Positions 27,926 through 60,791 of a stretch of DNA of 64,000 nt are shown in pieces. How positions within the stretch are numbered: the first letter of the stretch is position 1; each line of letters opens with the position of its first letter. The notes beneath the pieces are model-generated. The model did no database searches, was not told where the DNA came from, and worked only from the letters and a program-made list of their open reading frames with translations. The DNA is from a virus, in IMG/VR virus record IMGVR_UViG_3300025684_000011; one strand, written 5' to 3'. The translations under genes and the position numbers were made by a program.

Positions 27926-28564
27926 ATGCTATCAACATATGCAAATAAACAAAATACTCATCTTGTAATAGATACAACAACTAATGGAATATTAATTGCA
28001 GTACATAGCAACGTTGTTGCGAATGCAATATGTTTTAAAATATTGAATACAGAATCAATGTCTATTAGGCTAGTAGATTTCAATGAGCAAATAAATTCAT
28101 TGCTTAACCCACAGTTTAATGAGTCTAGTAATTTTATATTAACTAAAGTTGGACATAACTTAACACCTCAATCAACAGCAAATGTTGGACAACTTGTAAA
28201 AAGTACAGATGGCCATGGTCGTTTTGGTGTAGCTAAAATGTCTGAAGTAACAGATGAGTGGATAGCATTAAGAAAGAAAGCACATAATATCAAAGAAGTT
28301 ATAGCAAGTAGCGATCTTCGAGTTCTTAGATCAGCAACACCGAGCAAACAGTTCTTTGGAGACACTATTACCTTTCCTTTTATTAAAAAAGAACTTGATA
28401 AATGTAATCCACAGGAAGATCAATACACAGATGCTATTCGAGAATGGGCAAGTATAGTAAATGTTCCTGTAAAAAAAGGATTTGAAATGCTATCAGCAGA
28501 AAGCAATAATATTACTCATTTGGTTAATAATTCAAGAATATTTTGGAGTAAAAAATGTCTTTAA
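27926..28564 (+). CDS. PP-loop partner protein, family A
   Basis: Shares KC.P..D.Y...I.EWA motif with 29585 and 37420 ORFs. Confidence 0.7.
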   Translation: MLSTYANKQNTHLVIDTTTNGILIAVHSNVVANAICFKILNTESMSIRLVDFNEQINSLLNPQFNESSNFILTKVGHNLTPQSTANVGQLVKSTDGHGRFGVAKMSEVTDEWIALRKKAHNIKEVIASSDLRVLRSATPSKQFFGDTITFPFIKKELDKCNPQEDQYTDAIREWASIVNVPVKKGFEMLSAESNNITHLVNNSRIFWSKKCL

Positions 28565-29592
28565 ATTATGCTTTTAGTACTAAATTAAAACATGGCAGTG
28601 AATATGCTAAGAAAGACATTGCTGTTTTTCGTTCTCTCTATCGTATTGATCCAGATCCATTTTTAGTTGATAGAACTGGCTCTGTAGTCTTTCCTTTCTC
28701 AGAAAACAATTATTTTCCAATGATACAACCGTTATCTAATGTTATGAGTTGGGAAGAATGTACAAAAGAGAGAGTTGAAGAACTAATATCCTTTGACAAA
28801 GAACTTTATGTTATGTGGAGCGGAGGAATAGATAGTACATTAATGCTTTTATCTTTTATGAAATATAGTAATATGAATAATGTTACAATAGTTTTAAACA
28901 TGGACTCAATTAAAGAATATCCTTATTTTTATAAAAGGTTTATAGCTCAATGTAATTATAAATTACTGTCAACTGAACAATTAATGAATAATGCATTGCT
29001 AAATGACATCAATGGATTAATAGTATCAGCCGAACATGCTGATCAGTTAGTTGGATCTCCTTTGGCTCAGTTACTTGCAACAACATCAGGTAGAACAATG
29101 CTTGGTCTTCCATTTGATGAAGACAATTTCAGCAAATTTTTAACAAACTTAAATGTTCCAGTACATCATATTGATACAATAATGGAACTCTATAACATTA
29201 GTATTAAAAACAGTCCTCGTCCAATTAAGAATATGTGGGATCTCTGTTGGTGGCATGGATTTAACTTTAAATGGCAAACCATCTACATGAAACTGGCTAT
29301 TAGAATAAAAAATCCTTTGAATCTTTTAACTTTCTACTCTTCGGTAAACTTTCAAAATACCAGTATACACCAAGAAGGTAATACACTTGATCTAAAGAAA
29401 GTTTTTAAAGATATAATCGTTAATTATACCGAAGATACTGAATACCTAAGAAAAGAAAAATTTGCATCTTCAACATTATATTATGGACTAACCTCTTCGA
29501 CAGGATTAGACAAAAATTGGAATAAAATTAATGTTGATATGATTGAATACTATAATAAAGATAACACTATAAAGGAAATAATGAATGCTTGA
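28555..29592 (+). CDS. PP-loop ATP pyrophosphatase, asparagine-synthetase C-domain-like (subtype A)
   Basis: VDRTG, WSGGIDST, SAEHADQLVG (cf. AsnB SGEGADELFG), WWHGFNFKWQ. Confidence 0.8.
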   Translation: MSLNYAFSTKLKHGSEYAKKDIAVFRSLYRIDPDPFLVDRTGSVVFPFSENNYFPMIQPLSNVMSWEECTKERVEELISFDKELYVMWSGGIDSTLMLLSFMKYSNMNNVTIVLNMDSIKEYPYFYKRFIAQCNYKLLSTEQLMNNALLNDINGLIVSAEHADQLVGSPLAQLLATTSGRTMLGLPFDEDNFSKFLTNLNVPVHHIDTIMELYNISIKNSPRPIKNMWDLCWWHGFNFKWQTIYMKLAIRIKNPLNLLTFYSSVNFQNTSIHQEGNTLDLKKVFKDIIVNYTEDTEYLRKEKFASSTLYYGLTSSTGLDKNWNKINVDMIEYYNKDNTIKEIMNA

Positions 29593-30304
29593 TACTTTTA
29601 GCAATAGAAAAAATGTTACAATGATGCTTATAGACCAAGAAGATCTCAGTATATTAACTGTTACATCAAGTGTCTCGGTACTTAATGCATTGTCAGAAGG
29701 TTTTGATAACTCTGTACCTGTACTTGGAAGAATAACAAATCCTGATGCGTTAAAAGCACTAAGAACTTATAATCAATCAGCTTCTCAAGCTCTGTTAGTA
29801 AATGTCGGACTTGATGATCTAACTCAAGAAATTGAAACCAAAGCAAATTGGGACACGATTGGACTAACACCAATCAGCTTTGGCTTAAAGCCAATGAACG
29901 AAAAAGCAGAAGGGTTTGTATTAAAAAGAAAGATTGCAAATAGAAGAAACAACGTACTGTCTCAGATTGAATCTAAATTAGAACGTTATGCCAGTCGAGT
30001 TATTAATTCTTCTCTTGATGATATTTTTATTCCCTATATGTCGGACGAACTTAGTAAATGTAAACCAGATGAAGACCAATATACCAATCCTGTAATTGAA
30101 TGGGCAATAGCATCAGGTTTAGATGTAAAACAAGCATATCATGAGTTAAGCATGGTAACAAGTTCTGCTAATTTAATTACTATGCGTCTTCATGCTCATT
30201 GGAGGTTCTTTGTAAACCAAGTTAATAAGCTCGACTTTCAAGTTGACGGAATACTAGAAAAAGTTATTGCTGATGCTGAACTAAAACTTAGATCTGGGCT
30301 ATAA
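29585..30304 (+). CDS. PP-loop partner protein, family A
   Basis: ELSKCKPDEDQYTNPVIEWAIASGLDVKQAYHEL paralogous to 27926 and 37420. Confidence 0.7.
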   Translation: MLDTFSNRKNVTMMLIDQEDLSILTVTSSVSVLNALSEGFDNSVPVLGRITNPDALKALRTYNQSASQALLVNVGLDDLTQEIETKANWDTIGLTPISFGLKPMNEKAEGFVLKRKIANRRNNVLSQIESKLERYASRVINSSLDDIFIPYMSDELSKCKPDEDQYTNPVIEWAIASGLDVKQAYHELSMVTSSANLITMRLHAHWRFFVNQVNKLDFQVDGILEKVIADAELKLRSGL

Positions 30305-30329
30305 ACGGATAAAAATCACAAAAAAAAGG

Positions 30330-30358
30330 TTGACTATTGGATAGAGTTATGTTATATT
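30330..30358 (+). promoter_or_regulatory. sigma70-type promoter
   Basis: TTGACT-17-TATATT preceded by an A-tract. Confidence 0.65.
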
Positions 30359-30407
30359 AATAACATAGTTAGAAAGACTCTAACTACTTTTGATAAAAGG
30401 AAATTAA

Positions 30408-30704
30408 ATGTCAAAAACTACAACGTCAATCAGATCATTCGATCTAGAAACGAAGCAAGGCAAGCTCTTTCACGCACTAGTGCTAGAGAAGCAAGCTCTT
30501 ACTAAATCAGCAATTAAGAAGCGATTTGGTATTGCAAATCCTACCGCGACTGTATCGAACATTCGCCAACGTGGTTATGCTATCTATGCAAACCAACGTA
30601 AAGCCGGTAATGGCGTACATGTAACTGAGTATTCACACGGTGCTCCGTCACGTCGTATGGTTGCTTTGGCCTATAAGGCTCAGGGAATGGGTATTACTGT
30701 TTAA
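30408..30704 (+). CDS. winged helix-turn-helix DNA-binding protein
   Basis: LT...IKKRFGIANPTATVSNIRQRGYAI. Confidence 0.7.
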   Translation: MSKTTTSIRSFDLETKQGKLFHALVLEKQALTKSAIKKRFGIANPTATVSNIRQRGYAIYANQRKAGNGVHVTEYSHGAPSRRMVALAYKAQGMGITV

Positions 30705-30726
30705 TCAGTAGTTTCTAAAACTGACT

Positions 30727-30758
30727 AAAAATAGGGGGAGAAATCCCCCTATTTTCTT
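30727..30758. terminator. intrinsic terminator
   Basis: AAAATAGGGGGA-GAAA-TCCCCCTATTTT. Confidence 0.85.
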
Positions 30759-30803
30759 GACATAAATATCAGGCATTGAATGCAAGAAAGAGAGAGTATA
30801 CAC

Positions 30804-33284: not shown

Positions 33285-34187
33285 ATGAAGATATTACCCT
33301 TAGCCACGATCGCAGTATTCGTGGGCATCTTTACGGCGAATGCTGGTGAAAAACTAGCACTTCCGTCTACGGAAGGTGTAGACATTACAACATATGGTGA
33401 AGTCCGAGCATATGTTGAATCATCAACTACAAATGATGTTGATACAGCAATTAAAACATCAGACAGTAAAGTAGGACTAAAATTTAAGACTAAAGAACCA
33501 GTATATGTCTTTGGAGAAATGTCAGCTAATGTTGATCTATCCTCAGACGGAGCAGACGATGTAACAACTCGGTTTGGTTATATTGGCGTAGGTACCAATG
33601 CATTGGGAGAAATTTCACTTGGACGTACAATGAGCATTATGGATTCATTTGTTGATAAAGCAGATGTGTTTATGGGTGCAGGAAATCAAGGAGTTCAGAA
33701 GACTCCTTTTACTATGAATAACAGTTTGAAGTATACTGGTAGTTTTAGCGGAGTCGATGTTGGCTTTCAAACACAAATGACTGATGATGCACAAAACCAT
33801 GACTTGGATTTATATCAAATTGGTTTAGGCTACAAAGGCATTGGTGTTGCATATGCAAGAGATGAAATTAATTCATCTGACTACTATGGCTTGGGTGTTT
33901 CTCAAAAGTTTGGAAAAATTGGAGCATATGCTAGTGTGTCGGTATTAGATGATGATACACAAGCAAATGATGCAGTTGGATATGAACTTGCTGGTTCATA
34001 TGATTTAAACGAAAAACTAACACTACAAGGCGGTTGGCAAGATACTGACGTTCAATCAGATGACGGTAACTTGACAATTGAATCACAGTATAAGATTGCA
34101 ACTCAATCAGTATTTTTTACTAATATTGATTATGACTTAACAACAGAAGATGCAACTCTTCGAACAGGTCTTAGCTTTACATTCTAA
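33285..34187 (+). CDS. Gram-negative-type porin
   Basis: Signal peptide, YGEVR, SKVG, RFGYIG, GEISLGR, C-terminal F. Confidence 0.85.
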   Translation: MKILPLATIAVFVGIFTANAGEKLALPSTEGVDITTYGEVRAYVESSTTNDVDTAIKTSDSKVGLKFKTKEPVYVFGEMSANVDLSSDGADDVTTRFGYIGVGTNALGEISLGRTMSIMDSFVDKADVFMGAGNQGVQKTPFTMNNSLKYTGSFSGVDVGFQTQMTDDAQNHDLDLYQIGLGYKGIGVAYARDEINSSDYYGLGVSQKFGKIGAYASVSVLDDDTQANDAVGYELAGSYDLNEKLTLQGGWQDTDVQSDDGNLTIESQYKIATQSVFFTNIDYDLTTEDATLRTGLSFTF

Positions 34188-36367: not shown

Positions 36368-36443
<76 letters not shown>

Positions 36444-36766: not shown

Positions 36767-37420
36767 ATGAAAATTTTAACAACGGACGGCATGCTAGATA
36801 AAAGAAATACAATGTACCCTTCTTATGCCGAAAAGATTACAAATGCATTTAAAACTTCTGAGGCCTATAGTTCAACTTATGGATATGTACTAAACGGAGA
36901 AGTTGAATTACCAAATAAATGGATTGCAAGAGAGAAGGAATATTTTTCTTTTGCAAGTCATGAATCAACAGATTTTCAAGTAACAGGGACGGCAGTATTT
37001 TTTACTAGACTAGGACATATGCATCAAAACAACTTAGGAGGTCCTATTGAAGACAGTGGACGACTTTGTTATATAGATGGTTGTAGTGATAGTTTATTAA
37101 TATATCCAAGTCGTGCAGGAGATCCAAGTGTTAACCTTTTAGCTTTCCCTGCAGGCATTAACCAAACATTTCATATTCACCCTAGTGTAAGATTAGGATT
37201 TGTTGCTGAAGGATCAGGTAATGCAGAAATGATAACAGGTGAAGTGTATCCGTTAGAAGCAGGAAGTATCTTTTGTATTGAAGAAAGAGAAAATCATAGA
37301 TTTCAAACAATAAACGATACAATGAAAATTATTGCATACCATCCAGATGGAGATTGGGGACCAACTGATCAAAATCATACAATGTTAAATCGTACATATA
37401 TACTCGACGGTGGCCAATAA
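36767..37420 (+). CDS. cupin-domain protein
   Basis: YIDGCSDSLL, QTFHIHPS.R.G....G, H.F, HPD.DWGPTD. Confidence 0.75.
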   Translation: MKILTTDGMLDKRNTMYPSYAEKITNAFKTSEAYSSTYGYVLNGEVELPNKWIAREKEYFSFASHESTDFQVTGTAVFFTRLGHMHQNNLGGPIEDSGRLCYIDGCSDSLLIYPSRAGDPSVNLLAFPAGINQTFHIHPSVRLGFVAEGSGNAEMITGEVYPLEAGSIFCIEERENHRFQTINDTMKIIAYHPDGDWGPTDQNHTMLNRTYILDGGQ

Positions 37421-38124
37421 TGTTCACAACAGAACCAACACTACAATATCTAATTGTAGATAGTAGAACTAATGTTATTCTAGTTGGAACAACAAATGCA
37501 GATGTAGCATCTGCATTGATGCTAAGAAGATCCTACTATAGATCAGAAGTAGACTACATGAACAATTCAAGTAAGAACAAAGGTCTTTTTGCTACTGGTT
37601 TAGATAGAGAGTTTGATAAGATGATAGTCACCTATAGAATGAATTATCATGTTAAGTGGGGCGGTACTCCAAACGAATCAGGTCGGCACGAAATAGAGAC
37701 TGTTAGGGATTGGACTAATCTTGATAAAAACGCTGTTACACAAGCTAGACAAGAAGCAATGACAGCTGAATTATTCTATGCTAGTGCATGGCAGATTCTT
37801 ATGCATTCTTTAAGATGGACACCTCCAGAAAATGACATGGTGATTAGATTTTATCCTGAACTGTTAGATGCAGTTAATAAATGTATCCCACTCCACGATT
37901 ATTATGTTGATGATATTATTGAATATGCTTCTATTACTGGAATAACACCTAAGCAAGCCTATAATGAAATTAACAACCAACTAATACCTATACGCAAACA
38001 ACGTATTCGTGCGTATGCCCTTTGGCAAAAATATACCCAAAAGATGCTAATGGTAGACACTAAACAAGAATTTCAGAATATACTTTCAGAAATTAGAAAC
38101 AACGTATTTTTAGGAACAGAGTAG
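37420..38124 (+). CDS. PP-loop partner protein, family A
   Basis: LIVDSRTNVILV; NKCIPLHDYYVDDIIEYASITGITPKQAYNEI. Confidence 0.7.
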   Translation: MFTTEPTLQYLIVDSRTNVILVGTTNADVASALMLRRSYYRSEVDYMNNSSKNKGLFATGLDREFDKMIVTYRMNYHVKWGGTPNESGRHEIETVRDWTNLDKNAVTQARQEAMTAELFYASAWQILMHSLRWTPPENDMVIRFYPELLDAVNKCIPLHDYYVDDIIEYASITGITPKQAYNEINNQLIPIRKQRIRAYALWQKYTQKMLMVDTKQEFQNILSEIRNNVFLGTE

Positions 38125-38125
38125 A

Positions 38126-38443
38126 ATGTATAGACCATTACCAGACGGATTAACAATAAGAGAATCAAATGTACAAGGATTAGGATTATTTGCAACCAAA
38201 GATTTTGATGCAGATGTAGTATTAGGAATTGTGCATGTTATGAATAAAAACTTCCCTCATGGAAGTATTAGAACGGCATTAGGTGCTTTTTATAATCATT
38301 CAGATGACCCTAATTGCAAAAACCATGAAGGCTTCTGGCATCAGATTCCTGTCCGTTATTTAACTACAACTAAACCTATCAAATCAGGTGATGAATTAAC
38401 TGCAAAGTACACTTTATATAATAATTTTGAGGATGTAGCATAA
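38126..38443 (+). CDS. SET-domain protein
   Basis: GLGLFATKD, FYNHSDDPNC, IKSGDELTAKY. Confidence 0.85.
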   Translation: MYRPLPDGLTIRESNVQGLGLFATKDFDADVVLGIVHVMNKNFPHGSIRTALGAFYNHSDDPNCKNHEGFWHQIPVRYLTTTKPIKSGDELTAKYTLYNNFEDVA

Positions 38444-39534
38444 TGGGCGAATTATTATTATCTACAGTTTCTAGTCAAGTACATACCGCAACAAACAAAA
38501 CACAAGACCAACTGGATTTTTATTCCATTTATAATGTTATTGCTCCATTAGTTAATTTATGTGACAGAACTGGTCACGTTATAACTCCTTATAATTATAA
38601 AGTTACATTACCAATCCCAGCTAATGGCAAAGTAGGAACATTTGAAGAAATTGCAATCGCTAGGGCAAAAGAGTTATTAGATTTAAGTAAGGCAACTAAC
38701 AAGCCTTGTTTAGTTTTGTGGAGTGGAGGCATTGATAGTACAACAGTATTAACAGCATTAATTATAGCCGCTGATGGAGATTATAGTAATATTAAAGTTT
38801 GTATGAATGCTCAATCAATAAGAGAAAATCCTAAATTTTATTATAATTATGTTAGAGGTAAAATGGAAATTGCTCCTAGTGAAATAATGTTTGATTATAT
38901 TAATAAAGATCATATTATTTGTAGCGGAGAGGGTTGTGATCAGTTATTTGGAACTGACATATATCTAGCAATTCAGGGTTGGGATAATAATGCAAGTATG
39001 TTCCAACCATATACTTTTGAAAATGTTGGTGCATTTTTTATGCATAAAGGAATGCCTAGCAGACAAGCAAAAATTTGGTTTGATATAATGGATAACCAAA
39101 TTAAAGCAAAACAACCTTGTGAAATTACAGATTTTAAAGATTTCTTTTGGTGGTACAACTTCTGTTATAAATGGCAAAATGTATATTATAGACTTTTTAA
39201 TATGGGAAAAAGAATGTCTATAACACTTGACCAAGATTTCTTTGATAACAACTACCATAACTTTTTTATGAATGACGACTTTCAAAGATGGAGTATAAAC
39301 AATCCTGATAAGAAAATTACAAAGGATTGGGCTTCTTATAAATTTACAGCCAAAGAGTTTATATATGCGTTTGACAAGGATGAGGAATACTTTAATAATA
39401 AAGTTAAGATTCCAAGTCTGATAAACGTGTTTCGAACTATAGAGCATGTTGGCGGACTAAATTCTGATTTTGAATTTTTACCTAAGAACTTTGATATTGA
39501 ACCTTATATTAACAAAACAAACAGTTTTACTTAG
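38443..39534 (+). CDS. PP-loop ATP pyrophosphatase, asparagine-synthetase C-domain-like (subtype A)
   Basis: CDRTG, WSGGIDST, SGEGCDQLFGT, DFFWWYNFCYKWQ, FQRWS, YK..AKEFIY. Confidence 0.82.
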   Translation: MGELLLSTVSSQVHTATNKTQDQLDFYSIYNVIAPLVNLCDRTGHVITPYNYKVTLPIPANGKVGTFEEIAIARAKELLDLSKATNKPCLVLWSGGIDSTTVLTALIIAADGDYSNIKVCMNAQSIRENPKFYYNYVRGKMEIAPSEIMFDYINKDHIICSGEGCDQLFGTDIYLAIQGWDNNASMFQPYTFENVGAFFMHKGMPSRQAKIWFDIMDNQIKAKQPCEITDFKDFFWWYNFCYKWQNVYYRLFNMGKRMSITLDQDFFDNNYHNFFMNDDFQRWSINNPDKKITKDWASYKFTAKEFIYAFDKDEEYFNNKVKIPSLINVFRTIEHVGGLNSDFEFLPKNFDIEPYINKTNSFT

Positions 39535-39570: not shown

Positions 39571-40512
39571 ATGGAATATGGATTAGACAACAAACAAGAA
39601 TTTTATGTTGATTATACATCTTGTACTAGACCAGTAGGTAACATGCGAGATGAAATGGAAATTGCATGTACTAACTTAGCAGAAGATGCACAAAGTAGAA
39701 ATACTTCTGTACTCATCAGCCTTAGTAGTGGATTAGATAGTCAGGTATTGTTGCACACATTTCATTCTTTAGGACTGCCATTTAGTACAGCCTTCTGCCA
39801 TTGGCCAGGTTATAATGATAACGAACGTAGTAATATAGATATACTAGATAAGAAGTATGATAATAAAACTACTATTATTGAAATTAATCCAGATGATCAT
39901 AAAGAAGAAGTTGAAAAACTAGCAATCAGTACTGGAATCCCAGCAGAACATCATTTAATGAAAATGTTTTTAAATCAACTACCAAATGAATTAGATATAT
40001 TACAAGGTATTGAAAGTTTTGATTTTATATTCCGTAATAAAAAAACATATTGTATGGAAAGTTGGACTGCAATAGAAATAGCAAGTCAAAGAGCATTACA
40101 AGAAGTTAACCGTGAAGGTAAGATAGTATCAATTGACAGACGTTCTAAGTTTAACGAGTTTACACTAGCATTGTTAAGTGATTCAATAGTTGAAGGCTAT
40201 TGTAATTCTATTAGGTATATTGCTGGCAATGGTTTAATTGAGAAAAAATCAGGAGAGTCACCTCCTTTAATATTTTCATGGGAATATTATGTCAAACCTT
40301 TGTTATATGGTTTATATTGGAAAGGTGAATTAGAGTTATTTCCAAAAGATGTTAGTGCAAATAATATTGCCTGGATAATGAATCCAAGCGACAGCAGGTT
40401 GAGACATAACTATAAAAATAAATGCGCCTATGTTGAGAGGAACGAATTAATAAACCATCTAAAAGATTTTGGGTCTAATAAGACTCGTAGATGGCATCAG
40501 TATAAAGGATAA
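39571..40512 (+). CDS. PP-loop (adenine nucleotide alpha-hydrolase) protein
   Basis: LISLSSGLDSQ motif. Confidence 0.7.
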   Translation: MEYGLDNKQEFYVDYTSCTRPVGNMRDEMEIACTNLAEDAQSRNTSVLISLSSGLDSQVLLHTFHSLGLPFSTAFCHWPGYNDNERSNIDILDKKYDNKTTIIEINPDDHKEEVEKLAISTGIPAEHHLMKMFLNQLPNELDILQGIESFDFIFRNKKTYCMESWTAIEIASQRALQEVNREGKIVSIDRRSKFNEFTLALLSDSIVEGYCNSIRYIAGNGLIEKKSGESPPLIFSWEYYVKPLLYGLYWKGELELFPKDVSANNIAWIMNPSDSRLRHNYKNKCAYVERNELINHLKDFGSNKTRRWHQYKG

Positions 40513-40516
40513 AAAT

Positions 40517-41827
40517 ATGCCGGCACCACTTATAGATCCAAACGGATCTTTACCAGAAAAGAATATAATTGTAAATCCTTATATTAATAAGAAGTTAGGA
40601 TATTATATTGTAGACGGTTTTGAGTTTGATTCAAAAATTAGAGCAGGATTACATTCTGTTAAAGTGAATAAGCCAGTACAATGGATATTTAACAACAAAG
40701 AATTTAGATCTCATGACTGGAGTGTTGAACCTAGTGAAACTTTAGATCAGTTATATGATGCAAGAGCTTTTGACCTAAGAGTAAAATATGATTACCTTAT
40801 TTTAAGTTTTAGTGGAGGAAGCGATTCTTGGAATATTTATAAAGCATTTCAACGACAAGGCTTACACATTGACGAGGTAATTGTTAATACAATGTCTAAG
40901 GCAAGTAAAGGATTAGTAACAGATACCAGTACTAAAGCATTTAATGCTCCTGAAAGCGAACATGTAAGAAATACAATACCTAGGCTTAAAGAAATACAAA
41001 AAGAAATGCCTATGACAAAGATTACTGTTACTGATCAAAGTGACTATCTGTTTGAAAGCCTAGAGGCGGCCGGAGATGCTAGTTGGGTATTAGAGAAACG
41101 TGAGGGATTGAATCCTGCAGGTATTACTAGATTCAATTATTTGCATTTTATGGAAGTAAGAAAGAGATTTGATAAAGATAAAAAGATAGGGCTGATAGTT
41201 GGTATTGAAAAGCCTAGAACACTTGTTCACCAAGGACGTTTCTTTGTTAGATTTGCAGACAGAAGTACCAATATGATTACAGTAGCAGAACATTTAAAAG
41301 ACTATCCTAATTCAACAGTTGAATTCTTTTACTGGTCTCCAGATTGTGTTCCTTTGCTTATTAAACAAGCTCATGTTGTTAAGAAATACCTTGAGGCTAA
41401 TCCTTCTATGCAAGTTCATTTCAATAGTGAAAATTCTACAGGAAAAGTATATAGATTATTGCACGAGCCTTTACTTAGAAACTTATTATACAGTACCTGG
41501 GATCAACGTTGGTTCCAAGCAGAGAAAGCAGTATTAGATTGGGATAGTGAATTTGATCAATGGTTTAGAGTTGGTTATCAAGATACTAAAGCATATCAAA
41601 TTTGGATGGAAGGTCTAAAGTATGTAGCAGACAACTTAAAGCCCTTTCTACGTTATGTAGAAGATCCTGATAATGATATATGGAATACTAGTGTAATGAA
41701 TTCTTTTATTGATAGGGGTGATGAATTAGTTGGACAACGTCCGGATGGTTTGGCTCCGGTCCTTCATAACTACGAAGTTGGTAGAATGAAAGTAACCGGG
41801 CCAGGTGTTAATACGTTTATGCGTTAG
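40517..41827 (+). CDS. PP-loop (adenine nucleotide alpha-hydrolase) protein
   Basis: YDYLILSFSGGSDSWN, HIDEV, GIEKP, EFFYWSPD, KQAH. Confidence 0.75.
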   Translation: MPAPLIDPNGSLPEKNIIVNPYINKKLGYYIVDGFEFDSKIRAGLHSVKVNKPVQWIFNNKEFRSHDWSVEPSETLDQLYDARAFDLRVKYDYLILSFSGGSDSWNIYKAFQRQGLHIDEVIVNTMSKASKGLVTDTSTKAFNAPESEHVRNTIPRLKEIQKEMPMTKITVTDQSDYLFESLEAAGDASWVLEKREGLNPAGITRFNYLHFMEVRKRFDKDKKIGLIVGIEKPRTLVHQGRFFVRFADRSTNMITVAEHLKDYPNSTVEFFYWSPDCVPLLIKQAHVVKKYLEANPSMQVHFNSENSTGKVYRLLHEPLLRNLLYSTWDQRWFQAEKAVLDWDSEFDQWFRVGYQDTKAYQIWMEGLKYVADNLKPFLRYVEDPDNDIWNTSVMNSFIDRGDELVGQRPDGLAPVLHNYEVGRMKVTGPGVNTFMR

Positions 41828-42744
41828 TTCTTCTGTAATGGAATATTATTGTCTATTAAAAATGCTTTTAATTTAACATTATTACGGAAAGCAAAAAGTT
41901 TTGTTTCTAAGTCTGTTCCTGCAATAGGAAACAATCCAATATTTTTAAGTCCTTGAACAAACTCTTTTCTCTTAAAAACATTGCTAATATCTTCTTTAAT
42001 ACTATCTAAGTTAGGCGACTTCCTTGATGCAATTAATCCAATAGGACTAACAAACGGAAACTCTTCCTTATACACATCTTGCCATGTAGGAATGTCTAAT
42101 CCTAGATCTTGACTTGACATAATGCTTGTAATATTAGCATCTAAATGATTTTTCACAGTTGGATAGTTTGCAAACATGCAATCAATATTACCTGCTAGTA
42201 AATCACTCAAAGCAGTAGTTCCTCCTTTGGCATAAGGAATAACCTTACTTTCAATTTTTAACTTTTTAATTAGTACTTCTGTAGCCAAATGTTCACTACT
42301 TCCGTAACCCGCGGCACCAAATAAAATTCTTCCCTTATCAAAGTTTTCTAAGTCTGCAACTGTTGACATTTTTCTATCATCATTACAAACTAATACATTA
42401 GGCATTGTAGCAACAACACCAACTAGTTCAAAGTCTTTAATAGGATCATATGGTAAATCTTTAAACCTAATTTCGTTAGTAACATAGATTTGTGCCATTG
42501 TGGCTGTAATAATAGCATTATTAGTTGTTAACATATGTTTGATTGCAATTTTACCTGCGGCACCTGGCCGGTTTACAACATTATATTTGTTATTAGAATC
42601 AACAACATTTCTTTCAATTAATCTTGTAGTTTGATCACTTGGGCCTCCAGGTCCGTGATGTACTGTAAATTCAATGTCCGCGGCGGAGGCAGTTGAAACA
42701 GCAAATGCCATAATTGCGGCACTAATTAAAATATTTTTAATCAT
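41824..42744 (-). CDS. tctC: tripartite tricarboxylate transporter binding protein (TctC/Bug)
   Basis: Signal peptide, PGGPSD, NRPGAAG, YDPIKDF, GSSEHL, PYAKGG. Confidence 0.88.
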   Translation of the reverse strand: MIKNILISAAIMAFAVSTASAADIEFTVHHGPGGPSDQTTRLIERNVVDSNNKYNVVNRPGAAGKIAIKHMLTTNNAIITATMAQIYVTNEIRFKDLPYDPIKDFELVGVVATMPNVLVCNDDRKMSTVADLENFDKGRILFGAAGYGSSEHLATEVLIKKLKIESKVIPYAKGGTTALSDLLAGNIDCMFANYPTVKNHLDANITSIMSSQDLGLDIPTWQDVYKEEFPFVSPIGLIASRKSPNLDSIKEDISNVFKRKEFVQGLKNIGLFPIAGTDLETKLFAFRNNVKLKAFLIDNNIPLQKN

Positions 42745-46755: not shown

Positions 46756-47556
46756 TTGTCTTGGGGTAACCAAATTAAAGAGAAGGTCTCTTTCTTCCAT
46801 ATGAATGCATGGAAAAGAAGGCCTAATGCTAATATATTTTATAGTCCAGGAGTTGACAGATGTTTTGCAGTCGACACCTTTGATCCTTATACAGCATTTG
46901 ATGTTGCTAAGATATTAAGCAGTAAAATGCCAGCCATTGCGGTAATTGTATTACATTTTGAAGATAGAACAGATGTTAACAATAGTAATGTTACAGATTT
47001 TACAATAACAGATAAACAAGTGATTGGAGGAGCCGCTGGATTATTATTCAGTAGGCAGACTCCTGTATTTAGAAAAATGCAAAAGCCAGTTTTAGAATTC
47101 TGTGAAAGTATGCCTTTAGATTATATGCCAGGCTCAAATGGATATGATACTTTTATGAAGTTCTCAGAATATACTAAATTTGTAATACGTTGTTGGCATG
47201 CAACAAAATTGTTTGATATGGTGCATAACTTTTTACCAATGGAAGAGTTTGCAAACGAATATCTTTCTGGAGAAGTACCAGACGATATGTGCTTACCAGC
47301 AGATAGTAGTAACACAACAACATCTGACTTAGGACCTAAAAATGAAATTCGTAGAATACTTTATAATGCAGATTCTATAGACGAAGCAATGTCTAAGATT
47401 GCTGATATGTGGAGAAATAACAATACTCCACATTCCTTTCCTATGCGAAAGATGTTTTATGCAATACTTAATCACCCTGACTATCCAGAACCAGAAGATT
47501 TAGGTAAGTCACAATCAGATACTGATTTAACACATTACTCAGGTTATCTATTATGA
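46756..47556 (+). CDS. PP-loop partner protein, family B
   Basis: YSPGVDR...D..D..T...AKILSSK and RRILY....IDEA shared with the 58631 ORF. Confidence 0.72.
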   Translation: MSWGNQIKEKVSFFHMNAWKRRPNANIFYSPGVDRCFAVDTFDPYTAFDVAKILSSKMPAIAVIVLHFEDRTDVNNSNVTDFTITDKQVIGGAAGLLFSRQTPVFRKMQKPVLEFCESMPLDYMPGSNGYDTFMKFSEYTKFVIRCWHATKLFDMVHNFLPMEEFANEYLSGEVPDDMCLPADSSNTTTSDLGPKNEIRRILYNADSIDEAMSKIADMWRNNNTPHSFPMRKMFYAILNHPDYPEPEDLGKSQSDTDLTHYSGYLL

Positions 47557-48854
47557 ACTTAGATACAAAGTTATATTACACATCAGTTAATTGGGACGGC
47601 CAGGAAGGAAATAAGTTTTGGGAGAAAACTTACGACGAAGTAGGAGCAGGAGGCAAGTTTGTAATTGACTTTGCCAGAAGAATTAATCCAAATAGATTCT
47701 CTACAAGAGATAATTCAATATGGACACTTCCTTGGCCTGACGAGATTTTACCTAAGTACAAACTAGTTCAATACGATCCTAACTATACAGGTTCTTTTGC
47801 TGAAGCATCAGATAGTAAAGCAATGGAATATGCTAGACGTATTGATGAGAATAATGAGAAATTTGCTATCATGTATTCTGGAGGATTAGACTCAACAATC
47901 ATTACAACGGCGTTAATCAAAAATTTGACAAAAGAACAACTTAAAAACGTTTCTATCTGTACTAGTGTTCAGGCAGTAGTTGAAAATCCAAATTACTGGA
48001 GAAAGTTTATCTTTGGTAAATTCAAAATTATTGATTCAATGGTAAACAAATATGATACTTTACTAGAACTAGGATATACTCCAGTAACAGCAGATGACGG
48101 AGATTGTATTCATGGAACAGTATTAGGTTTAAACTTTTACCATGCATGGGAACAAAAGATTGGCGAAAGGTTAACAGCAGATCAAAGAGCTCATGTAAGA
48201 AACAACTTGCATAAACTTAGTGATAAAGACACACATTTTAGTGTATTTGAAGATGCATTAGTTGAGTACTTTCAGTATAGCAATACACCATGGTGGCCTG
48301 TTCCTAAGAATTTAAATCCAGATCCAATGTTTGGTCGTAAACTATACGACAAGTATGCCTTAAATGCAAAAACAGCATCTTGTCCTGTTATTAGTTTGCA
48401 AGATTTCTTTTGGTGGTTAATTTTTAATGTTAAAATGATAAACTGTGGAGTTCGAGGTGCAATGTATTATAACGATCGTTATGATATGAATATAGCAATA
48501 AACAAGATTGAGAATTGGTACTTATGGCCAGCATATCAACAGTGGTCAATGAATAACAATAATAACGGACAAAAAATTGGATACGGTGCTGGTACATATA
48601 AGAAAGTCGCAAGGGACTATATTTTTGAGTTAGATCAAAATATATGGTATAGAGATTTTAAGTTGAAACTTGAAAGTATGGGACAGAATAGTGTTCGTCA
48701 AAAAGTTGATACAACTGTTTATCCAAAACCCATGCATAGGTTTGGTATTACAACTGACTACAAGATGTTAGATGTATTAGATGTAAATGTACAAGATTAT
48801 ATTAAGCATCATTTGTCCAAATTTGAGATTACTTGGAGTGAGGAAACAAAATGA
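47553..48854 (+). CDS. PP-loop ATP pyrophosphatase, asparagine-synthetase C-domain-like (subtype B)
   Basis: NRFSTR, YSGGLDST, TADDGDCIHGT, DFFWWLIFNVK, YQQWSMNNN, TYK..ARDYI. Confidence 0.82.
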   Translation: MNLDTKLYYTSVNWDGQEGNKFWEKTYDEVGAGGKFVIDFARRINPNRFSTRDNSIWTLPWPDEILPKYKLVQYDPNYTGSFAEASDSKAMEYARRIDENNEKFAIMYSGGLDSTIITTALIKNLTKEQLKNVSICTSVQAVVENPNYWRKFIFGKFKIIDSMVNKYDTLLELGYTPVTADDGDCIHGTVLGLNFYHAWEQKIGERLTADQRAHVRNNLHKLSDKDTHFSVFEDALVEYFQYSNTPWWPVPKNLNPDPMFGRKLYDKYALNAKTASCPVISLQDFFWWLIFNVKMINCGVRGAMYYNDRYDMNIAINKIENWYLWPAYQQWSMNNNNNGQKIGYGAGTYKKVARDYIFELDQNIWYRDFKLKLESMGQNSVRQKVDTTVYPKPMHRFGITTDYKMLDVLDVNVQDYIKHHLSKFEITWSEETK

Positions 48855-49423
48855 GAATAAAAGGTAGAGTGAAGCAAGATGCTAAAGGTATGGATGTTCA
48901 AATATGGCACACAGATACCATTGGACAGGAACCACTTTTAACAGCATCTTATTATAGAGCAACATTATTTCTACTAGAAAAAGGTTGGGGTATGACTCCT
49001 TATGAACTAGCATCAAGTTCACATAGAGCAATATTTTTAACAACTACAACAGAACCAGAAGAATTTTTAGGTGGAGTTATTTGGGAATATCATTCTTATA
49101 ACAAACAGGCAATGATTGTTTTAATCTGGACAGAGGACAAGTGGAGAGGTAGACACTTATATACTTTACTACAACACGAACTTGAAAGAGAAAGTGTAAT
49201 ATGCGGAGGTACCAGTATTGCAAGTATGGCTCATGCTGATAACGAGCCAAGACTAAAAGCTGGAGCAAGAGAAGGTATGTTCCCTCAATTTCATAGACTT
49301 TATAAAGATCTATCTCCAGATCTATTTGAGAGAAAAAAGCAAATAGCCGAAGAAGCTGGAAAGCCCTGGAGAGAAATTAATCGAGACAGATATAAATTAG
49401 AATCTCGTATGACAACAAAATAG
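48851..49423 (+). CDS. GNAT-family N-acetyltransferase
   Basis: IWTEDKWRGRHLYTLL, HADN motifs. Confidence 0.7.
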   Translation: MRIKGRVKQDAKGMDVQIWHTDTIGQEPLLTASYYRATLFLLEKGWGMTPYELASSSHRAIFLTTTTEPEEFLGGVIWEYHSYNKQAMIVLIWTEDKWRGRHLYTLLQHELERESVICGGTSIASMAHADNEPRLKAGAREGMFPQFHRLYKDLSPDLFERKKQIAEEAGKPWREINRDRYKLESRMTTK

Positions 49424-49472: not shown

Positions 49473-49549
49473 CTGCCCTTAGCTCAGCTGGATAGAGCAA
49501 CTGCCTTCTAAGCAGTAGGTCGCAAGTTCGAATCTTGCAGGGCAGGCCA
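49473..49549 (+). tRNA. tRNA-Arg(UCU)
   Basis: CTGCCCT/AGGGCAG stem, ACTGC-CTTCTAA-GCAGT anticodon arm, CCA. Confidence 0.93.
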
Positions 49550-53062: not shown

Positions 53063-53136
53063 GCGGGTATTGTGTAGTGGTAAGACCTTAGCCTTCCAAG
53101 CTAATGACGCGAGTTCGATTCTCGCTACCCGCTCCA
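53063..53136 (+). tRNA. tRNA-Gly(UCC)
   Basis: GCGGGTA/TACCCGC stem, TTAGC-CTTCCAA-GCTAA, CCA. Confidence 0.92.
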
Positions 53137-57322: not shown

Positions 57323-58006
57323 ATGAGCTTAAATACAGATGGTTTATTTTTAGCACCAGCTAATCCTCAACTGTCAAAGTATGATGGGGTTAAACTTCCT
57401 CCGTTAGTTATACCGGACGGAAGTGGCCCCTGGGCTCTGCGATATATCTGGGTAAAGCATAAAACTAAAAACGATGAATTTGTAAAAAATTATTTTAACA
57501 AAGGAAATAATGCAACAGGTTCCGGACTAAATTTAAGAAAACAAACATCTCACATGAAAGAGACAGCATGGAATCCTCATAACAATATTTTTGATACTAG
57601 CAGAGAAAACGGTAACTTGATTTGGAGAGTTAAAGTACATAATCATTTAGCCGATACGATTGATTATATTGAGATATGGCGTAGCAAAGAAATTATTAAA
57701 GAAACATTTGGTGTTAAAAAAGGCGACACTACAAAAAATGATGTTCCTGTAACCGAATCAGAAAGTAAATCAGATTTAGCAAGATCTGCAGAAGAAATTA
57801 TTACATTAAGAAAAGGATTAGAAGAAGCAGGTTTTGAGCCAAGAGCTTGGTCTACCTTTCCTAATGTCCATCCTCTCGTTGCAATGAGATGGTATCTTTA
57901 CTTTTTAGACAGACGAAATGGAAATAAGCAATGTGTTATAAACACACCTTATAATAAAAAATTAAACGATTGGGAACCTTTTAAAAATAACAAAGGAGTT
58001 AATTAA
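57323..58006 (+). CDS. hypothetical protein
   Basis: 227 aa ORF in operon. Confidence 0.6.
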
Positions 58007-58007
58007 A

Positions 58008-58634
58008 ATGGCACTTGTACCTATGGTAGTAGAAAAGACCTCTGAAGGAGAAAGAGCATACGATATCTATAGTCGTTTGCTTAAAGAAAGAATTGTTATG
58101 GTTGAAGGAGTAGTAAACGATAACATGGCTAATTTAATTGTTGCACAATTACTTTACCTTGAGGCAGAAAACGATAACGATATTACAATGTTTGTTAACA
58201 GTCCAGGCGGATCAGTTACTGCTGGCTTAGCAATTTATGATACTATGCAATTTATTGGTTGTGATGTTGCAACTTATGCTATGGGCCAAGCATGTTCTAT
58301 GGGATCAGTATTAGCAATGGCAGGTGCAACTGGAAAGAGATATGTATTGCCTAGCTGTCGTACAATGATTCACCGTGTTAGTTCTGGAACACACGGAACA
58401 AGCGGAAGTGTTCATGTACAAGAATTACAGTTTGAAGATGCTATTCGTAGTATGGAAGAATCTAAAAAACTTAACGAACGTTTAACTCAACTATATGTTA
58501 CCCACAATACAAAAGGTAAGACATATGATCAGATGTTTGAAACTATGAAGTTTGATACTTTTCTTGACGCCGCCGCAACTGTTGAATTTGGACTTGCAGA
58601 TAAAGTTATTGCAAACAGGGCTGATGTAAAATGA
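58008..58634 (+). CDS. clpP: ATP-dependent Clp protease proteolytic subunit
   Basis: [31 protein letters not shown] (Ser), MIH (His), FDTF (Asp). Confidence 0.95.
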
Positions 58635-59365
58635 GTATAATGACTGAACAAGGTTTAAAGGAACTAGTCGCTAAACAAGATACTTTAGGTAGAGTTCCTT
58701 TTGATGGTAGTAGATTTTATTCAGCAGATGCAAACTACCTTATATATTCTGTTGGAGTAGACAGATTTATATTATCTGATAGACTTGATCTATGGACTAC
58801 ATTAGAAACTGCTAAGATACTTTCTTCAAAGATTCCATTAACTTTAATTGCACTCACAAACTGTAGTAAAGATATTAACAACGAAAATTGTTTGTTTTAT
58901 ACAGTATCTGAGAAAACTGGTTGGAAGATGTCTGAGAATGCATGTCCAGAATTAGGTGCAGTATCAGGCGAGGATGCAGTAGAAGAGGCTGGCATTGCTT
59001 TAGACTTTAAAGATCCTATTAGTGCCAATTGGTTAGTTAACTTACAAAACTATGCATTCTTTTGCCAGAAGATATTACATGCAATTAGAATTGCTGATGC
59101 TGAAACCAATTCAGACGATGCAGTATTCTTTAAAGAGTTACTAGATCACGGAATTGCGGCAGTATTACAATCAAGAGCTGATCATACAAGAACTCCGCAA
59201 GGAGCATTACTTTGGACTAAAAGGGTACTATATACTTCAAAGAATATTGACGAAGCAATCAGTGGTATTAATAAGATATGGGATAGCAGGGTACTTAGAG
59301 ATAAAGATATAAGAGATAGATTTTTTGAGTATTCAGGATTACCTTTTAATCCTGGAGACAATTAA
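58631..59365 (+). CDS. PP-loop partner protein, family B
   Basis: [22 protein letters not shown]; KRVLY...NIDEA. Confidence 0.72.
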
Positions 59366-59366
59366 T

Positions 59367-60791
59367 ATGCCTGAAAATTTTACCCATGATACTTTTAGTT
59401 CTGAGCAATATTATTATGATGAACAGGCAAGAAAACATCCTACAACGGTAGCAGTTAAATCTAAACTACCAAAAGCAAAAGTAACATCTTCTGGCTTAAA
59501 AGTAGGAGATAGTTTATTTCATCATGGTATAACATGGAATGTAAGAACAGAAGAAATATACACCCCAATATATAATGATTTGCCATTAGCAGGAAAATAT
59601 CATGTTGACTTTGCAAAACAGTTTACATATAATAGATTCTCTCCTAGACATGGGCATTGGGCTCAACCTTATCCTGTAATTCCTTTACCAGAATTAGCTA
59701 TGCCGTCCTTTGATCCTAATCATAATAAGACATGGACAGAATGTACAGATGAAAGAGCTCAATGGGTTAAGGCTTTATTAGAAAAAGAGTCTAATCGTAA
59801 AATTGCATTATACTATTCAGGTGGAATTGATAGTTTGGTTGTTCTTATTGCATTACTAAAAGCATTAGATACCAAAGAACTTCGTTCACGTTTAACTATT
59901 TGTTGCAGTATGGAAAGTGTAATTGAATATCCTGTTTTCTTTGAAAAAGAAGTGCTTGGAAAATTTAGGATTATAGATCTTAAAATGGGTACTGTTCGTT
60001 TTAATAATTTAATCAATGAAGGATATACAGTTATTACAGCCGACTTAGGTGATGCTATGTTTGGAACTGAAGTGTCCACACAATTTTATTATACTTTTAG
60101 AAACCATGCTGAACGTTTAGGTTTTCAAGGAAGGAAAATGGTATCTGATTTACTTGAAGATATAGGTAAACCAGATGCACACTATTCTGTTTATAAAGAT
60201 GTTTTGATTGCATATTTAGAAACTCCAAATGTTTATTCTATGCCAACTAAAAGTAGAGAGAATATATTAACACCAGGCTTTGGTGAATGGTATTATAACA
60301 AACTAGACAAACTAGCACAGACATCTGATTATACTGTTCATAGTTTACATGATTTCTTTTGGCAGATTATTTTTAATGTTAAATGGATGCATTGCTCATG
60401 TCGTTGTTTTATGTTCTTTGGTGACCATACTAATAACAAACCATTGTTTGAACATAAACGTTATATAAATTGGTTTCAGTCTGATGATTACCAACGTTGG
60501 TCTATGGTTAATAATAACACAGGTCAAAAGATTAAAGGTGTAACTGCTTCTACATATAAGTGGGCGGCCAGAGAATACATATACGATTATACAAAAGATG
60601 AATGGGCATTGTATTTTAAACTTAAGATTGCATCTTTTCAAAAGATTGCTCCTGTTCACAGTTATCCACATGCTATGGACATTATAGATAGATTTGCTTT
60701 AAACACAGATTATACTGTAGTTCGTCATAGCGATCCTGGAGTGATTGATTATATACATCATCACCTTTTTAACTACAATGACTTACTCTAA
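59367..60791 (+). CDS. PP-loop ATP pyrophosphatase, asparagine-synthetase C-domain-like (subtype B)
   Basis: NRFSPR, YSGGIDS, TADLGDAMFGT, DFFWQIIFNVK, YQRWSMVNNN, TYK.AAREYI; SD GGAGA. Confidence 0.82.
   Translation: MPENFTHDTFSSEQYYYDEQARKHPTTVAVKSKLPKAKVTSSGLKVGDSLFHHGITWNVRTEEIYTPIYNDLPLAGKYHVDFAKQFTYNRFSPRHGHWAQPYPVIPLPELAMPSFDPNHNKTWTECTDERAQWVKALLEKESNRKIALYYSGGIDSLVVLIALLKALDTKELRSRLTICCSMESVIEYPVFFEKEVLGKFRIIDLKMGTVRFNNLINEGYTVITADLGDAMFGTEVSTQFYYTFRNHAERLGFQGRKMVSDLLEDIGKPDAHYSVYKDVLIAYLETPNVYSMPTKSRENILTPGFGEWYYNKLDKLAQTSDYTVHSLHDFFWQIIFNVKWMHCSCRCFMFFGDHTNNKPLFEHKRYINWFQSDDYQRWSMVNNNTGQKIKGVTASTYKWAAREYIYDYTKDEWALYFKLKIASFQKIAPVHSYPHAMDIIDRFALNTDYTVVRHSDPGVIDYIHHHLFNYNDLL

Follow-up and report, generated by a model that had tools for sequence, protein, structure and literature searches.

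Organization of the paired genes

The window analysed here, the whole 64,000-nucleotide stretch of IMG/VR record IMGVR_UViG_3300025684_000011, is a marine jumbo-phage fragment carrying four copies of a two-gene unit, in which a small partner gene precedes a gene for an AsnB-like ligase. The enzyme and partner genes listed below, together with the cupin, SET, further PP-loop and GNAT-like genes, lie on the + strand. The stand-alone AsnB-like PP-loop ligases fall into subtype A, at 28555–29592 (345 aa; enzyme HMM 2e-78) and 38443–39534 (363 aa), and subtype B, at 47553–48854 (433 aa; 46 viral relatives) and 59367–60791 (474 aa when counted from the ATG, with the frame open back to a TTG at 59325). 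BLASTP among the window ORFs joins these four into a paralogous set, with E values of 4e-25 for 28555 against 38443, 3e-17 for 38443 against 47553, and 3e-21 and 2e-80 for 38443 and 47553, respectively, against the last enzyme read from its TTG.

Five partner genes were found. Those of family A are located at 27926–28564 (212 aa; family HMM 1.6e-29), 29585–30304 (239 aa) and 37420–38124 (234 aa), those of family B at 46756–47556 (266 aa) and 58631–59365 (244 aa), the latter overlapping the end of a ClpP gene (58008–58634). BLASTP connects the A partners with one another (27926 and 29585, 3e-15; 29585 and 37420, 2e-8; 27926 and 37420, 6e-5) as well as the two B partners (7e-12), and no similarity is detectable between A and B, in agreement with the two families proposed in an earlier sequence-only reading of this DNA. 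Gene junctions overlap where the first A partner meets the start of its enzyme (28564/28555), where this enzyme meets the second A partner (29592/29585) and at the first B pair (47556/47553); the second B pair is one base apart (59365/59367). Partner 37420 and enzyme 38443 are separated by a SET-domain gene (38126–38443; Pfam SET 2.3e-10). The A partner at 29585 is followed by no enzyme gene and is either an orphan or a second partner of enzyme 28555; a relative, G001, has the same arrangement in its locus L002.

The sequence-only reading had counted six PP-loop proteins, and their coordinates and motifs, like those of the partners, were recovered as described. Four of the six are the paralogous enzymes. 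The remaining two, a second PP-loop ligase at 39571–40512 (313 aa, motif SSGLDS) and a third PP-loop protein at 40469–41827 (436–452 aa depending on the start, 40469 or 40517; motif SGGSDS), belong to other families, because in BLASTP they have only the PP-loop region in common with the four enzymes.

Fold and conserved residues of enzymes and partners

An AF2 model of enzyme 38443 (pLDDT 94) gave TsnB9, carbapenam synthetase, beta-lactam synthetase and ASNS as top Foldseek ranks. VIA-align Z scores were 10.6–13 against beta-lactam synthetase, TsnB9, AsnB/ASNS and carbapenam synthetase, with AsnB-family matches spanning about 200–260 residues, and did not exceed 8.5 against GMP synthetase, NAD synthetase and LarE. 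A glutaminase domain is absent from all four paired enzymes, so that the AsnB-type fold lacking this domain, as suggested previously, is borne out. The PP-loop reads WSGGIDST in enzymes 28555 and 38443, YSGGLDST in 47553 and YSGGIDSL in 59367. The second motif and the D..WW..F..K motif correspond to invariant columns of the enzyme alignment (D166, G170, D233, W236, F240, K243), and over 59 homologues the catalytic motifs SGGxDS, E128, D166, G170, K243, K300, K320 and K322 are conserved. None of the more than 625 homologues of enzyme 38443 has a Pfam match; the paired enzymes stay below the threshold of Asn_synthase (PF00733), the sequences being too distant to score.

The AF2 model of partner 37420 (pLDDT 83) shows a small N-terminal sheet followed by a C-terminal helical bundle, and has no PDB match and no known fold. 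Family A contains no invariant residue, which would fit an adaptor role without proving one, and its termini vary. In partner B many polar residues are invariant. Both families are neutral to acidic (pI 6.4 for A and 5.6 for B).

Pairing and co-diversification

We surveyed the pairing in 210 fetched loci containing 232 enzyme ORFs. An identified partner lies directly upstream of 179 of these ORFs, usually with a 4-nt overlap, and about one quarter have no recognised partner. In almost every viral locus of the series L005–L068, and also in CPR and Bdellovibrio loci, partner A directly precedes the enzyme, the two genes mostly overlapping by 4 nt; partner B directly precedes it in about 41 of 46 viral loci with a B-type enzyme. 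In near-complete phage genomes each partner copy is located beside an enzyme gene or within about 2 kb of one. The pairing is type-specific, as had been claimed: the enzyme tree requires only 3 changes of partner type, compared with 59.6 when labels are shuffled. Inheritance of the pair as a unit was likewise upheld by a Mantel r of 0.82 and by loci with several pairs, where 9 of 10 comparisons placed the cognate partner nearer than the non-cognate.

The unit occurs in hundreds of further phages and in diverse bacteria, which confirms the earlier observation and extends it far beyond the window. The label of a phage system is too narrow: CPR bacteria, Bdellovibrionales, Bacteroidota and Oxalobacteraceae carry the module too, and a diatom protein contains the enzyme fused to other enzymes. 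Further enzyme clades have one of two more unrelated upstream proteins (128 aa and 164 aa) or a fused N-terminal domain, which measures about 230 aa in viral enzymes of 561–568 aa. The diatom protein, 1,600 aa long and of biosynthetic type, has the order N-domain, enzyme, double methyltransferase (2xMT), cupin. The C-terminal half of 2xMT is CmoA-like (PDB 4gek, 6.5e-16; hhalign 97% to phage CmoA).

Recurring neighbours

The commonest neighbour of the enzyme is a cupin, present in 72 of 164 loci. In the window it is located at 36767–37420 (217 aa; Pfam Cupin_2 2.5e-8) and is 45% identical to the Oxalobacteraceae copy; its 3-His site (H136, H138, H177) is invariant. The family of the second ligase, c5_309, also recurs near the pair (39571 against c5_309: hhalign 99.3%, E 3e-20), and the family of the third PP-loop protein is present in 6 loci. 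Among the neighbours named in the sequence-only reading, Pfam supports the cupin, SET, Asp/Asn hydroxylase and SpeD, but the GNAT-like gene coupled to the first B enzyme (48851–49423) has no Pfam match of its own. It does cluster with ORFs having a weak Acetyltransf_1 match, with the GNAT encoded in the Oxalobacteraceae operon, and with 22 ORFs from B-type loci. Of the genes proposed to tailor a product, recurrence is limited to cupin, GNAT-like gene and second ligase; SpeD is found in only 6 of 47 B-type loci, and the SET gene, absent between partner and enzyme in loci L005 and L006, is a lineage-specific insertion outside the conserved module.

Comparison with known systems

As had been proposed, the pair maps to no characterised pathway, and the earlier interpretation as a whole is partly supported. 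The closest published precedent is the CmoA/CmoX/CmoY hypermodification of phage DNA, in which CmoY, a stand-alone AsnB homologue, ligates glycine onto 5-carboxymethylcytosine (PMC12783734). Like CmoY of Synechococcus phage S-B43, the paired enzymes are stand-alone AsnB-like proteins encoded by a marine phage and would be ATP-dependent amide ligases, and some relatives of the module are linked to a CmoA-like carboxy-SAM synthase. The paired family is nevertheless distinct: hhalign with CmoY aligns the PP-loop alone, and CmoY (271 aa), which lacks a partner gene, does score above the Asn_synthase threshold that the paired enzymes miss. The c5_309/39571 family is nearer to CmoY (c5_309 against S-B43 CmoY: hhalign 92.5%, E 5e-7).

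With AsnB, beta-lactam synthetase, carbapenam synthetase and TsnB9, their best structural matches, the paired enzymes have in common the PP-loop and a GEGxDQ-type second motif. They lack the fused Ntn-type N-terminal domain of these synthetases; its position is held here by an upstream protein that is separate and unrelated, or by a different fused domain. Lasso-peptide cyclases are also AsnB-like, adenylate a side-chain carboxylate and need separate small recognition and processing proteins. Unlike there, neither a B-type protease nor a short precursor was seen beside the pairs, and the partners are folded proteins of 130–270 aa.

Proposed function

We tentatively favour, at somewhat less than even confidence, a two-component ATP-dependent amide (carboxylate-amine) ligase with the partner as accessory subunit in place of the AsnB N-domain. 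From fold and motifs, the downstream protein would be a stand-alone AsnB-type synthetase domain; it would adenylate a carboxylate with release of PPi at the SGGxDS loop, after which an amine would attack the acyl-adenylate. Gene order, co-diversification and the fused forms suggest that the translationally coupled upstream protein fills the place of the N-terminal domain of AsnB, beta-lactam synthetase and TsnB9, and as a putative accessory subunit may choose the substrate or nucleophile. This replacement is a positional analogy and not one of descent, because no homology is detectable among the partner families, nor between them and either the fused N-domains or the Ntn glutaminase fold. For this role different enzyme clades would have recruited unrelated proteins: A, B, the 128-aa protein, the 164-aa protein or, in fused form, an N-terminal domain. 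The unit would act in short tailoring pathways alongside the 3-His cupin metalloenzyme, often joined by a second, CmoY-like ligase and a GNAT and in some lineages by a fusion of a CmoA-like carboxy-SAM synthase and a methyltransferase. In our order of preference the substrate would be a small metabolite bearing a carboxylate, or else a carboxymethyl handle formed with carboxy-SAM, then a carboxylated DNA or tRNA base, then a protein.

Rather doubtful, yet the best placed of the alternatives, is an auxiliary metabolic function during infection, in which the module amidates imported small carboxylates such as an osmolyte-like or nutrient acid. Genes for solute binding and transport are indeed found repeatedly next to the pair (19 of 47 B-type loci have DctP, frequently as the gene immediately after the enzyme; TctC-like genes in 11 loci; an SSF symporter in 17 A-type loci), the window encodes DctM, two DctP, TctC and a porin, and GNAT and fatty-acid desaturase genes are recurrent in enzyme loci. 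These regions are accessory-gene islands, however, and adjacency may be incidental; ectoine synthase, the solved structure closest to the cupin, is a weak match (1e-3) below family thresholds, and four divergent paralogues with private partners are left without a reason. Several paralogues would be explained by different adducts or targets if amines were ligated to carboxyl handles on DNA or tRNA bases, a hypermodification that has its precedent in marine-phage CmoA/CmoX/CmoY (PMC12783734) but that we consider unlikely. The resemblance of the c5_309/39571 family to CmoY points in this direction, as do the CmoA-like 2xMT, fused to enzyme and cupin in the diatom and immediately preceding the pair in Bdellovibrionales and two phage loci, TrmFO as the gene next upstream of the enzyme in 5 alphaproteobacterial loci, and the dCMP deaminase, ribonucleotide reductase and three U34 tRNA genes of the window. 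Against this, neither a C5-methyltransferase nor CmoX was found in the 210 loci or four related contigs, just 3 of 20 large viral records with the enzyme contain CmoA-like genes and none of the 5 near-complete ones does, the enzyme profile matches nothing in phage S-B43, its CmoY (SpCmoY) included, the partners are not basic, and the Bacteroidota set is limited to cupin, small protein and enzyme.

Improbable, too, is that the upstream protein is the substrate of the enzyme, either receiving a small acid, as QatB does from QatC and CdnD from Cap9, or having its own carboxylate activated in a RiPP-like manner. In QatB-QatC and CdnD-Cap9, likewise dedicated units of a PP-loop ATP pyrophosphatase and a motif-less neighbour, the partner N-terminus enters the PP-loop active site, and the amine of its conserved Gly2 is the nucleophile (PMC13376578). 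Unrelated partner families, each locked to one enzyme clade, are consistent with such a role, as is the presence of RiPP-type enzymes next to some of the pairs: 11 CPR loci encode YcaO and a nitroreductase, and among phage loci there are radical-SAM/SPASM and B12-radical-SAM enzymes. QatC and Cap9 are QueC-like (PMC13376578), though, whereas the fold here is AsnB-like, a conserved terminus was not seen, partner A has no invariant residue, and PADLOC matched neither the enzyme nor either partner family. The invariant polar residues of partner B are more reminiscent of a functional site than of a tag, and fusion of an N-domain to the enzyme is easier to reconcile with a subunit than with a substrate undergoing turnover. 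Far less credible still is a toxin-antitoxin-like or defence/anti-defence pair, in which a fast-evolving upstream neutraliser would precede a conserved enzyme. The gene order and the interchangeable unrelated upstream proteins resemble type II toxin-antitoxin logic, and the 128-aa Bacteroidota protein weakly matches the PADLOC candidate PDC-M69B (1.9e-5). The missing PADLOC matches for enzyme and both partners argue against it, and so do the stable linkage to cupin, ligase and methyltransferase, the fusion in the diatom protein and the 3–4 pairs that one genome may carry.

Four paralogous enzymes with an AsnB-type fold

All ORFs and motifs that the sequence-only reading had located in the window were found where it had placed them. 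Of its six stand-alone PP-loop proteins, four form one paralogous set (ORFs at 28555, 38443, 47553 and 59367, the last with an alternative TTG start at 59325; BLASTP E 3e-17 to 2e-80), whereas those at 39571 and 40469/40517 match this set in the PP-loop only. BLASTP also recovered the two proposed enzyme subtypes, 28555/38443 (A) and 47553/59367 (B). The PP-loop SGG(I/L)DS is invariant in the four paralogues and 59 homologues, and the second motif D...G and the D..W...F..K motif are, together with SGGxDS, invariant in the enzyme alignment A1. Residues kept across the 59 homologues are SGGxDS, E128, G162-E163, D166, G170, K243, K300, K320 and K322, with G162, E163, D166 and G170 invariant or nearly so; enzyme 38443 reads SGEGCDQLFG at this site. 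This motif may be the counterpart of SGEGSDE, the second nucleotide/acyl-adenylate motif of AsnB, and the other kept residues may likewise match AsnB residues. They are those expected of an adenylating enzyme.

Sequence databases were of little help in classifying these proteins. The homologues of enzyme 38443 number more than 625, and none of them is annotated or has a Pfam domain. Ten enzyme, partner and PP-loop proteins of the window gave no Pfam match at E 0.01, PF00733 (Asn_synthase) stayed under its gathering threshold in a six-frame search (9 bits, cut-off 21), and Pfam, PHROGs, NCBIfam and PADLOC returned nothing usable for enzymes or partners. Sub-threshold matches were confined to the PP-loop of LarE, NAD synthase, TilS, PAPS reductase and QueC, and the enzyme profile likewise matched the PP-loop alone among PDB sequences.

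The AlphaFold2 model of enzyme 38443, built from the 59-homologue alignment, reached pLDDT 94.4 and pTM 0.92. Foldseek ranked TsnB9, carbapenam synthetase, beta-lactam synthetase and the human and E. coli asparagine synthetases at the top (E 3e-4 to 1e-3), and VIA-align gave Z 10.6–13 for the AsnB-family folds 1mbz, 7ylz, 9b6c, 1ct9 and 1q19 compared with Z of 8.5 or below for GMP synthetase, NAD synthetase, LarE and others. Since AsnB-family folds rank highest in both comparisons, the enzyme is predicted to be a stand-alone AsnB-type synthetase domain without a glutaminase domain, and a very divergent one since PF00733 stays below threshold. The absence of a glutaminase domain, already proposed, agrees with a length of 345–474 aa and with the lack of a GATase match in Pfam.

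Enzyme and partner are inherited as a matched unit

The small proteins encoded upstream of the enzymes fall into two families by BLASTP, as had been suggested: partner A (27926, 29585 and 37420) and partner B (46756 and 58631). No profile similarity between the two was detected by hhalign. To follow the pairing beyond the window, loci were fetched around A-type enzymes (80 viral, 79 bacterial) and around B-type enzymes (46 viral). The partner A HMM matched 118 ORFs, nearly all of which end a few bases from the start of an enzyme gene, typically with a 4-nt overlap. Partner B lies directly upstream of the B-type enzyme in the same way in about 41 of 46 loci. Two more enzyme clades (Bacteroidota, Lewinella) are preceded by unrelated proteins of 128 and 164 aa.

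Mapped onto a tree of 208 distinct enzymes, the four partner types require just three changes, the lowest number possible; when partner labels were shuffled the mean was 59.6 changes and the minimum 51. Within the A clade the distances between enzymes and between their cognate partners correlate with a Mantel r of 0.82, a value inflated by shared ancestry (best permutation 0.07). Where a locus holds two pairs, 9 of 10 comparisons placed the cognate partner nearer than the other, several of these comparisons being non-independent. Tandem partner-enzyme-partner-enzyme arrays occur in six loci (L014, L018, L020, L024, L041 and L089). In five near-complete phage genomes each partner copy adjoins an enzyme gene or lies at most about 2 kb away, for example as three pairs in G006 and one pair in G012; some enzymes in these genomes are fused or have no recognised partner. 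Both the type-specific pairing and its co-occurrence in other genomes (an upstream partner was identified for 179 of 232 enzyme ORFs) thus bear out the core of the sequence-only reading: enzyme and partner are a matched unit inherited together.

Partner proteins and fused N-terminal regions

The AF2 model of partner A (58 sequences, pLDDT 83) consists of a small N-terminal sheet and a C-terminal helical bundle. Nothing in the PDB matched this model. Foldseek, a wide VIA search, BFVD and the ESM Atlas together yielded just helical noise or uncharacterised phage proteins (best Z 6.3), the BFVD and Atlas matches being relatives of partner A itself. The N-terminal Ntn glutaminase domain with Cys1 of a full AsnB is therefore not what this partner resembles. 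The partner B profile found nothing among PDB sequences, and Atlas feature searches yielded no usable matches for either family.

Conservation differs between the families. Among 106 distinct partner A sequences there are zero invariant residues, the best kept being A180 (90%), A170 (89%), Y169 (79%), R133 (77%) and D14 (74%). Among 40 distinct partner B sequences R35, D43, S55, K57, P103 and Y203 are kept at 100%, and D34, D40, K87, Q101, D122, N158 and D183 at 90% or more. Since A is without an invariant residue and B keeps many polar residues, partner A looks like an adaptor and partner B looks as if it had a working site, as far as conservation can tell. Complex prediction for enzyme 38443 with partner 37420, both supplied as alignments, scored 0.01, which speaks neither for nor against binding.

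Some enzymes carry their N-terminal piece in the same chain. Viral forms of 561–568 aa have an N-terminal domain of about 230 aa. A 1,599-aa protein of the diatom Seminavis robusta and a second protein of 1,641 aa (P0140, P0142) share one architecture, in which about 300 aa of unknown sequence are followed by the enzyme, a double methyltransferase (a generic methyltransferase plus a CmoA-like domain) and a cupin. Homology of the last two parts to the neighbouring genes in phages and bacteria is clear (5e-97 and 7e-58). The source record labels the S. robusta fusion 'Carboxy-S-adenosyl-L-methionine synthase'. The viral and eukaryotic fused N-terminal regions resemble no free partner, and hhalign was negative throughout among partner A, partner B, the 128-aa and 164-aa proteins, the viral fused domains and the eukaryotic regions. 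Since these show no mutual resemblance, the slot N-terminal to the enzyme is thus filled throughout, by differing things, with a partner identified for the 179 of 232 ORFs.

Recurrent neighbours and distribution

No neighbour of the enzyme is more frequent than a 3-His cupin, which 72 of 164 loci carry. Its representative in the window (36767) shares 45% identity with the Oxalobacteraceae copy. Invariant in the family are H136, H138 and H177, also R142, Y102, H192 and H204; the nearest solved relative is ectoine synthase, at just 1e-3. A PP-loop ligase family of about 309 aa also recurs near the pair. It includes 39571 of the window (hhalign 99.3%) and is weakly CmoY-like (hhalign 92.5%, E 5e-7). 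Other recurrent neighbours are a GNAT-like gene (including 48851), a fatty-acid desaturase, an SSF symporter, DctP and TctC binding proteins and radical-SAM enzymes. In Duganella and a related Oxalobacteraceae genome the operon runs 309-aa ligase, a 193-aa protein, desaturase, GNAT, partner A, enzyme, cupin; in these loci (L003/L004; Oxalobacteraceae, Duganella sacchari) it is flanked by flagellar genes (FliP, sigma factor) on one side and by a giant RHS-repeat protein exceeding 4,200 aa on the other.

Of the neighbours proposed as tailoring enzymes, the cupin and the GNAT-like gene do recur, whereas SpeD was present in just 6 of 47 B-type loci and the SET gene looks like a recent insertion. 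This minimal SET-domain gene (38126-38443) occupies precisely the space separating a partner from its enzyme. In the closest relatives (L005, L006; 78% identical) it is missing and partner and enzyme are directly coupled, which argues for the insertion.

Several other arrangements were observed. In CPR loci (L097, L101, L105, L113 and others; 10–11 of Parcubacteria type) YcaO, nitroreductase-family and PRTase/beta-propeller proteins are encoded just upstream of partner A and the enzyme. In Alphaproteobacteria MAGs (L139, L141, L151 and relatives) the gene immediately preceding an enzyme homologue codes for TrmFO (5e-128 to PDB 3g5q), the folate-dependent tRNA U54 methyltransferase, and this homologue is extended N-terminally by about 120 aa; since the carrier genomes are related, these amount to few independent observations. 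The 128-aa upstream protein of a Bacteroidota locus (L144, 7379-7765) weakly matches PDC-M69B, a PADLOC candidate defence protein (E 1.9e-5, profile positions 168–253 of 272).

One scan of IMG/VR confirmed at least 496 enzyme relatives, and further members of the family come from CPR bacteria, Bdellovibrionales, Bacteroidota, Proteobacteria and a diatom. Among the cultured phages of INPHARED the only match was a distant one in Pseudomonas phage Cygsa01 (L168, PP179332.1 11421-13570). Here two genes named 'tRNA-specific 2-thiouridylase MnmA', located downstream of baseplate and tail genes, are remotely related to the enzyme family (HMM about 1e-20) and may carry the wrong name.

Relation to known ligase systems and proposed function

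A 2025 study describes for phage S-B43 how CmoA produces carboxy-SAM, how 5-carboxymethylcytosine arises in DNA through the C5-methyltransferase homologue CmoX, and how CmoY, a stand-alone AsnB homologue, ligates glycine to this base (PMC12783734). That the present module might be the same system is suggested by the C-terminal half of the double methyltransferase, which is of the CmoA-like, carboxy-SAM synthase type (PDB 4gek at 6.5e-16). However, neither SpCmoY homology nor neighbouring CmoA and CmoX genes characterize the enzymes. Their profile had no match in S-B43 at E 1 or below, hhalign with SpCmoY gave 22.5% in the PP-loop alone, and SpCmoY (phmmer) and SpCmoX matched no ORF in 210 loci. 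CmoA (TIGR00740) and C5-methyltransferase (PF00145) were both absent from four related contigs, the genome of the window itself being partly sampled, and CmoA-like genes were present in 3 of 20 large enzyme-bearing records and 0 of 5 near-complete ones. We therefore reject this identity; the module appears to be a distinct ligase system that in some lineages is wired to carboxy-SAM chemistry. In QatC-QatB and Cap9-CdnD a PP-loop enzyme has its neighbour as protein substrate (PMC13376578). A module of this type would be expected to show a QueC-like fold and a PADLOC match, whereas the folds nearest to our enzyme are AsnB-type and PADLOC matched neither the enzyme nor partner A or B. A B protease/RRE and a short precursor, as in lasso systems, were not among the Pfam matches of the recurrent neighbours in a general scan.

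Most economically, the unit would be explained as a split AsnB-like amide ligase in which the upstream protein sets specificity and which works together with the cupin metalloenzyme. As substrate a metabolite, a nucleic-acid base and a protein have comparable, modest odds. A more far-reaching version, which we regard as rather improbable, is that the units are programmable amide ligases putting various amines on carboxyl or carboxymethyl handles of phage DNA or tRNA wobble bases, with the private partner of each picking the amine or the target. If so, four units would let one jumbo phage produce a whole set of hypermodified bases not seen so far, and the cellular and diatom homologues would act likewise on tRNA.

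The module is widespread and uncharacterised, while the kind of enzyme is itself known and no new category. The family has no characterised member and no Pfam model covering it, and a ligase core repeatedly exchanging its accessory protein would be an unusual way to set specificity. The chemistry may be new: CmoY, the sole studied related phage enzyme, brought a new DNA base to light. The module can be tested without the uncultured phage, in culturable carriers such as Duganella sacchari, Aquimarina and Tenacibaculum.

The phage of the window

The window has 35% GC and nearly all genes on the plus strand. Among its genes are those for a DnaB-like helicase, the two subunits of ribonucleotide reductase, three tRNAs, ClpP and a tail-fibre protein bearing an S74 chaperone domain, along with a long stretch of accessory genes. 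Since the closest IMG/VR records are fragments with a CheckV completeness of just 5–35% (35% for a 116-kb contig), the phage is probably a jumbo phage of about 300–330 kb, of which the window would cover about one fifth.

The ClpP-family protease gene (58008-58634) overlaps the start of the second partner B copy by 4 nt; ClpP does not feature among the common neighbours of B-type pairs. A reading of ClpP, partner B and enzyme as a protease-scaffold-capsid set was rejected in view of the enzyme fold and its four paralogues. The ORF at 25097-26182 matches the ring-hydroxylating oxygenase alpha subunit in its catalytic domain only (residues 142–346), Pfam returning no Rieske domain for it. Transport genes are found within 20821-24949, where DctM, the membrane component of a TRAP transporter (21311-22705), is followed by two DctP binding proteins (22689-23819 and 24011-24949) and immediately preceded by a 165-aa ORF that is possibly DctQ. 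A TctC binding protein and a Gram-negative porin are also phage-encoded (regions 33285-34187 and 41824-42744, the latter on the minus strand). All three phage tRNAs, Thr-UGU (36368-36443), Arg-UCU (49473-49549) and Gly-UCC (53063-53136), have U at the wobble position.
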